Source: a virus. From it: DNA of 41,820 nucleotides. Shown piece after piece: positions 40,393 through 40,701 of the stretch. The notes beneath the pieces are model-generated. The model was given only the letters and a program-made list of their open reading frames with translations, searched no databases and was not told the origin of the DNA. The position numbers and the translations under genes are program-made. Each line of letters begins with the position of its first letter. The stretch's first letter is position 1. Where the stretch lies: UHGV virus genome UHGV-1357484, one strand, 5' to 3'.

Positions 40393-40413
40393 ATAATTCA
40401 CTTCCATTTACTA

Positions 40414-40515
40414 TTTTTTGTTGTATAATATGTTTGAGCTAGATCACAATAGTTACTCTATAACCATTATGAATACCCCCTAGCTCACTGACCGCTGTCA
40501 CCTCATATGACGCGG
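40414..40515 (+). ncRNA. Candidate structured small RNA, unit 1: TATAAT -10 box, enclosing GAGCTAG/CTAGCTC stem, intrinsic terminator
   Basis: TATAAT at 40414-40419. tGAGCTAGa, then about 30 nt, then cTAGCTCA. Then GACCGC-tgtcacctcatatga-GCGGTC followed by TTTTTT at 40480-40513. Confidence 0.35.
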
Positions 40516-40630
40516 TCTTTTTTATGGTATAATTCAGACGAGCTAGATTCTTCCTTTTTAATTTCATTAAACTGAAAGCATATTTCAACTAGCTCAGAGA
40601 CCGCTGCCACCCAATATGCAGAGGTCTTTT
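40513..40630 (+). ncRNA. Candidate structured small RNA, unit 2, paralogous to unit 1, with a TGgTATAAT extended -10
   Basis: TGGTATAAT at 40513-40521. cGAGCTAGa, then about 45 nt, then CTAGCTCA. Then an AGACC...GGTCT hairpin followed by TTTTTC. Confidence 0.35.
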
Positions 40631-40634
40631 TCTA

Positions 40635-40665
40635 TGCAATCGCTTCGGTTAGCTGAGAGGCTGAA
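40635..40665 (+). repeat. Partial third unit (TTAGCTGAGAGGCTGAACG followed by TTTTTTT)
   Basis: It shares the TAGCTGAGAG core and the T-run with units 1 and 2. Confidence 0.3.
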
Positions 40666-40701
40666 CGTTTTTTTATTCTCCCCCTCCCAGTTGATCATCA
40701 C

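Follow-up and report, generated by a model that had tools for sequence, protein, structure and literature searches.

A predicted family of tandem antisense small RNA genes in temperate phages of the Enterococcus avium group

The OOP and anti-Q (PaQ) RNAs of phage lambda and the sar RNA of P22 are short transcripts, each with its own promoter and an intrinsic terminator, that run against the lytic operon and lower a downstream regulator, which for PaQ is the late-gene regulator Q. On the Enterococcus faecalis plasmids pCF10 (prgQ/prgX, with Anti-Q) and pAD1 (par, with RNA I/RNA II), convergent promoters, small antisense RNAs and terminators set the threshold of a switch. The type III antitoxin ToxI consists of ~36-nt repeats transcribed from a common promoter and excised by the adjacent toxin. 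To our knowledge phages of Gram-positive bacteria have yielded few regulatory RNAs, and we found none from Enterococcus phages in the searchable literature. Here we describe two tandem small RNA (sRNA) units in the UHGV virus genome UHGV-1357484, a stretch of 41,820 nucleotides (hereafter the window). The units lie on the plus strand between minus-strand genes of the early operon and have relatives, in arrays of one to at least seven, in other phages of enterococci.

For position and orientation, the single antisense RNAs of lambda and P22 appear to be the closest analogues, PaQ and Q corresponding to an array placed before an Ltr/ArpU/RinA gene. There is no homology to the units, however, and OOP, PaQ and sar are single RNAs of Gram-negative phages that overlap a coding sequence or a ribosome-binding site, whereas the units stand 2 to at least 7 in tandem, in wholly noncoding DNA of Gram-positive phages, and share a scaffold. 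The pCF10 and pAD1 systems (Anti-Q is mentioned in PMC7724050) are likewise without sequence similarity; they are plasmid-borne, with one sRNA each and a defined attenuation or toxin target, while no toxin or attenuator was identified for the units. Trans-acting sRNAs of Staphylococcus aureus prophages (SprY of phi12; PMC12197685, which also lists sas/P22) resemble the units in being carried by Gram-positive temperate phages. They are expressed from the prophage, whereas expression of the units is predicted, and they are single, unrelated in sequence and not situated in the early-operon leader of a late activator. ToxI shares with the units a tandem arrangement of structured RNAs on phage-related elements, from which the units differ as separate transcription units of a predicted 65-95 nt with no toxin gene. 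For the multi-gene, CU-rich design, the closest functional analogue would be LhrC1-5 of Listeria monocytogenes (PMC4132741), a set of adjacent sibling genes, each with its own promoter and terminator, that encode RNAs of ~100 nt. Their CU-rich/UCCC loop and single-stranded motifs bind Shine-Dalgarno (SD) regions without Hfq (PMC4132741), and the loops of the units too are CU-rich. The LhrC copies, in contrast, are near-identical including the seed, chromosomal and stress-induced, with induction by LisRK, and they lack the helix that closes the 5' and 3' ends of the units, which are phage-borne, have unrelated interiors and carry a constitutive-looking -10 box.

The two units of the window are laid out as follows.

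40424-40429, plus strand: -10 box of unit 1 (TATAAT), set 6 nt ahead of the closing helix
40436-40524, plus strand: sRNA unit 1, ~85-89 nt, supported by fold, covariance model and orthologues
40525-40533, plus strand: extended -10 box of unit 2 (TGgTATAAT), overlapping the end of the unit 1 T-run and lying 6 nt before the helix
40540-40633, plus strand: sRNA unit 2, ~92 nt, supported by fold, covariance model and orthologues

A first-pass annotation of the window had proposed independently transcribed, structured antisense sRNAs, each with a -10 box, a 5' segment that pairs with a 3' segment, a GC-rich hairpin and a U-tract, in a gap between minus-strand YopX and W-rich genes. Units 1 and 2 are built exactly in this way, and the gap, which holds both, measures 294 bp (40408-40701). 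The paired segments form a 7-bp closing helix that as RNA reads GAGCUAG/CUAGCUC in both units. In unit 1, GAGCTAG (40436-40442) pairs with CTAGCTC (40480-40486) around a 37-nt interior that comprises an imperfect hairpin and single-stranded AAUACCCCC; the terminator at 40490-40517 (GACCGC 40490-40495, GCGGTC 40512-40517) is followed by a T6 run at 40518-40523. In unit 2 the same segments (40540-40546 and 40589-40595) enclose a 42-nt interior with single-stranded AUUCUUCCUUUUU followed by a pair of small hairpins, the latter of which has the loop GCAUA, and the terminator hairpin (40599-40607 with 40618-40626) has one G-A mismatch before a T5 run at 40627-40631. Both units are more stable than any of 200 dinucleotide shuffles (0/200), with folding z scores of -5.6 for unit 1 and -4.5 for unit 2. 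The T-runs follow the hairpins on the plus strand only, so the hairpins cannot terminate the flanking genes, a point on which the first-pass annotation was correct, and we ruled out a bidirectional terminator or a terminator serving those genes. In a search for coding potential, unit 1 gave only a 4-codon open reading frame (ORF), and nothing proved conserved. ORFs of the gap, at 35-52 amino acids (aa), are non-hydrophobic, have no SD sequence and are not conserved, since the interiors vary; those of 35-49 aa on the minus strand are artefacts of the gap.

Many related loci, designated here by L numbers, came to light when IMG/VR and metagenomes were scanned with sequence patterns, and the family occurs in E. 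avium-group prophages. The loose pattern GAGCTAGA..CTAGCTCA proved too unspecific in IMG/VR (120+ matches, mostly chance) but did reveal L051, and the sole match to the strict unit pattern in genome contigs was a chance one in a Saccharibacteria contig. A first covariance model, built from eight units, gave 51 matches in 16 sources, representing 38 distinct sequences, and 36 further matches in ~14 metagenome contigs, human gut samples among them. A second model, R2, was built only from units of L015, L173, L147, L149, L198 and L186, with no window orthologues among them, which avoids circularity. Over the whole 41.8-kb window, R2 detects 40540-40633 (65.5 bits, E = 3.5e-11) and 40436-40524 (47.3 bits, E = 1.7e-7), the E-values being rough as they come from a shortened calibration. 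It matches nothing at a supposed third copy and nothing else with E < 0.1. A search with covariance models across related phages had been suggested as a check; it recovers the family with its structure conserved and, in the window, finds exactly units 1 and 2. Orthologues identical to unit 1 are present in L051, L110, L130, L132 and L135, and one that differs by a single base in L134, while diverged orthologues of unit 2 occur in L123, L128 and L110. Array size varies between a single unit (L132) and at least seven units detected by the model within ~1 kb: the large array of L015/L171 covers 10136-11080, with 2-3 promoter-terminator units of other types interspersed, and that of L162 is similar.

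The base pairs of the family covary. Among the 38 distinct units, 94.5% of the pair cells are standard, as compared with 24-46% in slid controls, in which the partners were displaced by 1-3 columns. Changes on both sides are seen in 15 of 16 pairs, and none of 500 shuffles reached the observed values. The closing helix is 98% paired with compensatory change in all of its pairs (7/7), for example GAGCUAA/UUAGCUC, GAGCUGG/CCAGCUC and GAGUUAGG/CCUAACUC. G-U and U-G pairs (39) exceed A-C and C-A mismatches (7), which indicates that the helices are maintained in the plus-strand RNA and not on the operon strand or in DNA; the T-runs and -10 boxes too are confined to the plus strand. The scaffold, GAGCU(A/G)G ... 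AGCUCA NN GACCGCUG, is far better conserved than the interiors. Covariation and the G-U bias across these homologues thus bear out the earlier proposal that conserved pairing combined with differing loops is the mark of selected RNA structure.

Searches of Rfam 15, with its LhrC, rli, csRNA, RsaE, tracrRNA, ToxI and tRNA families, at the gathering score gave no match in the whole window and, in four array-bearing relatives, only rli28 and a tRNA, both outside the arrays. At E values up to 10, the region 39800-41400 gave chance-level Rfam matches of at most 22 bits, none of which coincided in extent with a unit. ARAGORN called neither a tRNA nor a tmRNA in the window, none of 50,697 deposited phage genomes gave a BLAST homologue for the gap or for a 1-kb array, and the searchable literature yielded no earlier description. 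The family is known only from prophages and metagenomes. From these comparisons the units appear to form a well-supported RNA family that has not previously been catalogued, with 38 distinct members, and we think it very likely that they are genuine sRNA genes.

Each unit has, by its sequence anatomy, its own promoter and terminator. A hexamer that matches TATAAT at 5-6 positions is found upstream of 30 of the 38 distinct units; in 28 exactly 6 nt lie between it and the helix, and 14 carry the TG extension. At random control positions in the same loci, any such box occurs at 2.7% and a TG-extended box at 0.17%. The eight units that have no -10 box look like second domains of composite units. 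The boxes are of the type used by the housekeeping sigma factor of the host, with no good -35 element, and none is conserved because the -10 box directly follows the T-run of the previous terminator; no other upstream element is common to the units. Given the fixed register of the box and the terminator, transcription should begin with the first closing-helix base and finish within the terminator, which predicts family RNAs of ~65-95 nt.

Three minus-strand genes define the surroundings of the array.

40702-40986, minus strand: W-rich ORF of 94 aa, upstream of the array in the operon sense
40000-40407, minus strand: YopX-family gene (Pfam PF09643, E = 8.9e-20; phrog_98), with the conserved start MIPNF at 40392
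39144-39605, minus strand: RinA-like late transcriptional regulator of the Ltr superfamily (phrog_36, E = 2.7e-11), two genes further down the operon than the array

In each of the ten loci with listed ORFs (L015, L110, L123, L128, L149, L150, L162, L164, L173 and L147), the units run antisense to the phage genes beside them. The promoter of the first unit usually adjoins the start of the next gene in the operon sense, which is either a YopX-type gene (MIP(N/K)F...) or a late activator. The adjoining gene encodes ArpU (TIGR01637, above cutoff) in L123 and L015, and in L149, L150, L164 and L173 it is an ORF with the same conserved N-terminal sequence, a putative ArpU. In L123 just 1 nt lies between the first -10 box and the SD sequence of arpU, leaving no room for an arpU promoter. 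In the window ~20 nt separate the -10 box of unit 1 from an SD-like GGAAGTG before YopX, a spacing that leaves no room for a promoter of its own for YopX. The minus strand of the gap showed no site resembling a promoter, and we predicted no minus-strand terminator between 41820 and 39144, past the RinA-like gene, or in the early region. Downstream of the array the operon contains YopX, a 101-aa gene and the RinA-like regulator. In staphylococcal phages, rinA is reported to lie on one early transcript under cI control, and no factor other than Ltr proteins to be required for turning on terS and the late operon (PMC3753634). With rinA on the early transcript of those phages and no predicted promoter or terminator to isolate the genes here, transcripts that reach the YopX, 101-aa and RinA-like genes must cross the array head-on. 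The units thus have the marks of cis-antisense RNAs: a promoter of their own opposite the lytic operon, an intrinsic terminator and an operon transcript that is predicted to span the site. The core of the first-pass annotation stands on four observations, namely the covariation, the G-U bias, the -10 box in fixed register and the antisense placement in 10/10 of the loci with listed ORFs.

Our tentative choice for the main function is a cis-antisense and transcription-interference gate. Host RNA polymerase would transcribe the units constitutively, lysogens included; expression in the lysogen is expected because the units share their strand with the repressor and integrase genes. An early transcript crossing the array would meet head-on polymerases and stable, perfectly complementary sRNAs, and duplexes with the read-through transcript would undergo double-strand-specific cleavage and 5'-3' decay. 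Through interference and cleavage together, the distal early genes and the late-gene activator would be expressed later or at a lower level. This would suppress leaky read-through and late-gene expression and set a threshold or timer for the lytic programme. The paired 5' end may protect the RNA from 5' exonuclease and, with the terminator, yield a stable RNA. The architecture is unusual, with as many as seven or more predicted sRNA genes, each with a promoter of its own, placed head-to-tail and always backwards where the early operon meets the late-activator gene.

Several points weigh against the gate. Close relatives are without the array, which makes it dispensable. The duplex would end ~30 nt upstream of the YopX SD sequence, and direct occlusion of translation is not expected. 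The antisense orientation could merely be the sole one tolerated for terminator-bearing cassettes in an operon. A pure cis role leaves unexplained both the CU-rich, G-poor loops and the distinct interiors of paralogues that are conserved between orthologues. Promoter activity, RNA ends and RNA stability are all predicted from sequence, the covariance-model calibration was short, and the alignment behind the pair counts was fitted to the model and favours structure, a bias that the slid controls carry as well.

The interiors range from 9 to 43 nt and are wholly different between paralogues, while orthologous interiors are conserved between phages with some substitutions, as in unit 2 of the window compared with L123 and L128. 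They are poor in G (9%, against 23% C) and rich in CU motifs over their complements, with 23 CCTT and no AAGG, 18 TTCC and no GGAA, and 7 CTCC and 1 GGAG. UCCC is found in 4 of 38 units, and several loops, among them CCCCUCCUUUUUU, ACUCCUUUUUU and UUCUUCCUUUUU, resemble the 3' tail of 16S rRNA. C-rich/UCCC motifs in single-stranded loops are recognised SD-binding seeds of sRNAs in low-GC Gram-positive bacteria (PMC4132741). Enterococci are reported to be without Hfq, CsrA and ProQ (PMC7724050), which favours extended cis pairing or C-rich/SD pairing. These features, with the constitutive-looking promoters, are what would be expected if the units were moron-like trans-acting sRNAs whose anti-SD-like CU-rich loops block translation of host or other-phage mRNAs, in the mode of LhrC, RsaE and RNAIII, and if the antisense placement merely avoided terminating the operon.

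We regard a mainly trans role as possible but rather doubtful. When the loops were compared with all predicted ribosome-binding sites of the phage, they paired no better than shuffled loops (fractions 0.98 and 0.51). In the window and ~20 related loci the longest complements to the loops were 12-13 nt, no better than a reversed-sequence control. A trans role also does not require a constant position beside the starts of YopX and Ltr genes. Within the gate mechanism, CU-rich loops may pair with SD regions in trans additionally or alternatively, a function that is plausible in a genus reported without the three RNA-binding proteins named above. A 13-nt perfect complement to the conserved unit 2 hairpin GAAAGCAUAUUUC lies in the RecT gene (7654-7666, minus strand) and is kept in the RecT genes of L149, L161, L164 and L173; the reversed-sequence control gave matches as long, and it is probably due to chance.

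The contrast between the scaffold and the interiors could also be read as that of decoy or sponge RNAs, in which the closing helix and terminator are a handle for a defence nuclease, an RNA-binding protein or a CRISPR effector and the array is an anti-defence or titration device. Scaffold conservation far above that of the interiors fits this idea, and so does the location, since phage counter-defence genes are commonly found in the variable accessory region where the array sits. We nevertheless consider it improbable. The genes that flank arrays differ between phages and no associated protein gene travels with them, and Rfam, including its models of CRISPR-related RNAs, gave no match. Exact matches to loop 20-mers and 21-mers in IMG/VR fell solely within arrays, and none was protospacer-like. 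Recent duplication, together with the function of promoter and terminator, can explain the conservation of the scaffold. A further and quite unlikely variant is a scaffold-plus-variable-insert system, in which helix and terminator are a handle for an effector of host or phage origin and each unit presents a different CU-rich 'guide' that would aim interference at particular transcripts of the host or of competing phages. If this were true, the separately promoted guides would amount to a CRISPR-independent way of excluding rivals or taking over the host by RNA guidance.

Structured units repeated in tandem on a phage genome bring to mind toxin-antitoxin loci, as type III antitoxins are tandem RNA repeats, and DNA-level protein-binding repeats such as iterons or operators. 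The first-pass annotation had listed among its possibilities both a type I or III antitoxin array and a repeat-derived binding array. Neither agrees with the locus. There is no toxin ORF downstream on the same strand (no plus-strand ORF of 60 aa or more until beyond 41608, the next plus-strand feature being antisense to the W-rich gene), and no conserved small hydrophobic ORF lies opposite. Each unit is separately promoted and terminated, as opposed to a single promoter with processed repeats of 34-36 nt in type III systems. Protein-binding DNA repeats are contradicted by an arm spacing that varies from 9 to 43 nt and by the excess of G-U over A-C, G-U pairs being mismatches in DNA or on the other strand. 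We rejected both readings on these grounds and give them hardly any credence.

The array is bounded on the right by sequences with a history of their own.

40632-40651, no strand assigned: module-junction motif CTATGCAATCGCTTCGGTTA, a 20-mer that forms the conserved right-hand flank of arrays
40652-40674, plus strand: weak hairpin and T7 run, present only in this phage and near-identical copies and not a unit of the family
40675-40701, minus strand: remnant of the segment linking the W-rich gene to YopX in relatives without an array, its ends fused (GTGATGATCAAC joined to TGGGAGGGGGAGAAT), recognised by comparison with L140 and L141
~41177-41204, no strand assigned: a further copy of the junction motif, TTACGTTATTGCTTCGGTTACCGGATCT, standing apart from any array

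The motif CTATGCAATCGCTTCGGTTA follows the last terminator in L110, L123, L128, L134, L137, L147, L176, L182, L191 and L196-198, and L132 has a copy not accompanied by an array. The motif joins the array directly to the equivalent of window position 41184 in both L130 and L182. The first-pass annotation had seen a truncated third copy at 40636-40680. This stretch is module-junction (recombination) sequence and not a decayed unit: its fold is at chance level (z = +0.19 against shuffles), neither covariance model matches it, and its conserved part is the junction motif, on which grounds a truncated third unit was ruled out. The weak hairpin at 40652-40674 was flagged by a permissive hairpin scan alone. 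We also observed that boundaries between gene modules, whether or not an array is present, repeatedly carry the motif CTATGCAATCGCTTCGGTTACCGGATCT, which marks the points where recombination between phages has occurred.

Six relatives have no array at this site (L140-L143, L145 and L147). L140 and L141 carry ~120 nt of coding-like sequence in its place, and in E. malodoratus (L145) and an Enterococcus sp. (L147) the W-rich and YopX genes overlap with no gap; L147 carries units upstream of its W-rich gene instead. From these comparisons the array is, in all appearance, a mobile cassette. Mobility, dispensability and conserved junction sequences at its bounds are also what would be left by non-functional shells, that is, ORF-less promoter-terminator remnants of morons, or selfish repeats that spread by recombination at the junction motif; the G-A mismatch in the unit 2 terminator of the window, not present in L130, points in the same direction. 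Such shells are very unlikely to be the explanation, as selection has kept the closing helix, which is neither promoter nor terminator, almost fully paired with compensatory change at every position. The predicted transcription start is moreover locked to the first helix base, G-U pairs exceed A-C mismatches, and the units share no ORF remnants.

The window is a complete temperate-phage genome, circularly permuted, in which all lytic genes are on the minus strand. Apart from the region of the array, two modules orient the map.

13437-15543, plus strand: lysogeny module, with integrase (14410-15543), CI-type repressor (13437-13874) and ImmA protease
6453-9285, minus strand: RecE/RecT-like and DnaD-like replication genes

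The window (1-41820) was apparently opened in the middle of the early operon, the early genes running from 13300 to 440 and the operon resuming at 41820. The minus-strand order past the window ends is small early genes, YopX, the RinA-like regulator, terminase, and morphogenesis and lysis genes. The W-rich ORF had no match in Pfam, PHROG and NCBIfam. Its protein is 100% identical to an E. avium hypothetical protein, annotated as ABQD92_12885 in an E. avium genome, and has homologues in E. malodoratus, E. devriesei and unclassified Enterococcus, and E. raffinosus carries the neighbour gene of a related array. The host of the phage is therefore probably a member of the E. avium species group, an assignment that is based on the protein names for the W-rich ORF and the related-array neighbour. 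The RinA-like protein scores 28.6 bits against TIGR01636 (RinA), under the cutoff of 31.9.

Near the RinA-like gene we noted two further sequences. On the plus strand at 39030-39137, a conserved AAGGAG and a 6-codon mini-ORF (MPIKLG*) precede a plus-strand terminator at 39119-39137 that adjoins the stop codon of the RinA-like gene; the segment is kept in L145 and L147. On the minus strand at ~38575-38640, in noncoding sequence between the Ltr gene and terS, is a degenerate tRNA-like sequence with D- and T-arm motifs and a truncated anticodon arm, which ARAGORN does not call. Relatives have real tRNA genes at the same place: a tRNA-Asn in L145 (5093-5167), a 'SeC(tca)' call in L147 (7168-7244) and an Rfam tRNA in L173 (6385-6457).

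Antisense units of other types occur in the window and in related phages.

38168-38250, plus strand: antisense promoter-terminator unit of a different type, with TGGTACAAT, ~40 nt, GACCACUGcggaaaCAGUGGUC and a T-run

This unit lies between a 74-aa HNH-like gene and an 86-aa ORF, is kept in L051, L138, L140 and L147, and is matched weakly by the family models (20.7 and 17.7 bits). In L015, 9019-9198 on the minus strand gives a 133-bit match to the Listeria sRNA family rli28 of Rfam, on the operon strand between arpU and terS; rli28 has no match in the window. Upstream of arpU in the E. faecalis phages phiFL2A, phiEf11 and vB_ElaS_B1578 the models did not find the family, and its presence there was ruled out. 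A different antisense unit lies directly upstream of arpU in Enterococcus phage phiFL2A (L199, NC_013643.1; 2100-2460, minus strand of the locus). This E. faecalis phiFL1/phiFL2 unit consists of a TGATATAAT promoter, a UUUCUCCUUUUCU stretch and the terminator CAGCCAttggtcGGCTGG with a T-run, the terminator resembling a type seen in E. avium arrays. It is annotated as a 63-aa 'gp32', whose ORF runs through the terminator, and 'gp32' may be a noncoding RNA instead. One unit type of the arrays is preceded by a perfect palindrome, TTTGTCTTTTGAGAAGACAAA (L123 ~13990-14026, L128 ~11735-11770, L132 ~2590-2628, and L137), in place of which other phages have GGTGTCTTTTGAGAAGACACC, a version altered in both arms in step. 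The palindrome might serve as an operator or form an additional RNA hairpin.

If the gate operates as proposed, the arrays would add a layer of lysis-lysogeny and timing control to phages of the ArpU/RinA type, which include mobilisers of pathogenicity islands and spreaders of genes among enterococci. If the loops act in trans against SD sequences, they would be prophage-encoded modulators of host translation in an opportunistic pathogen group without Hfq. Either reading would provide a testable system and a covariance model with which to annotate regions that are now blank or labelled 'hypothetical protein'.

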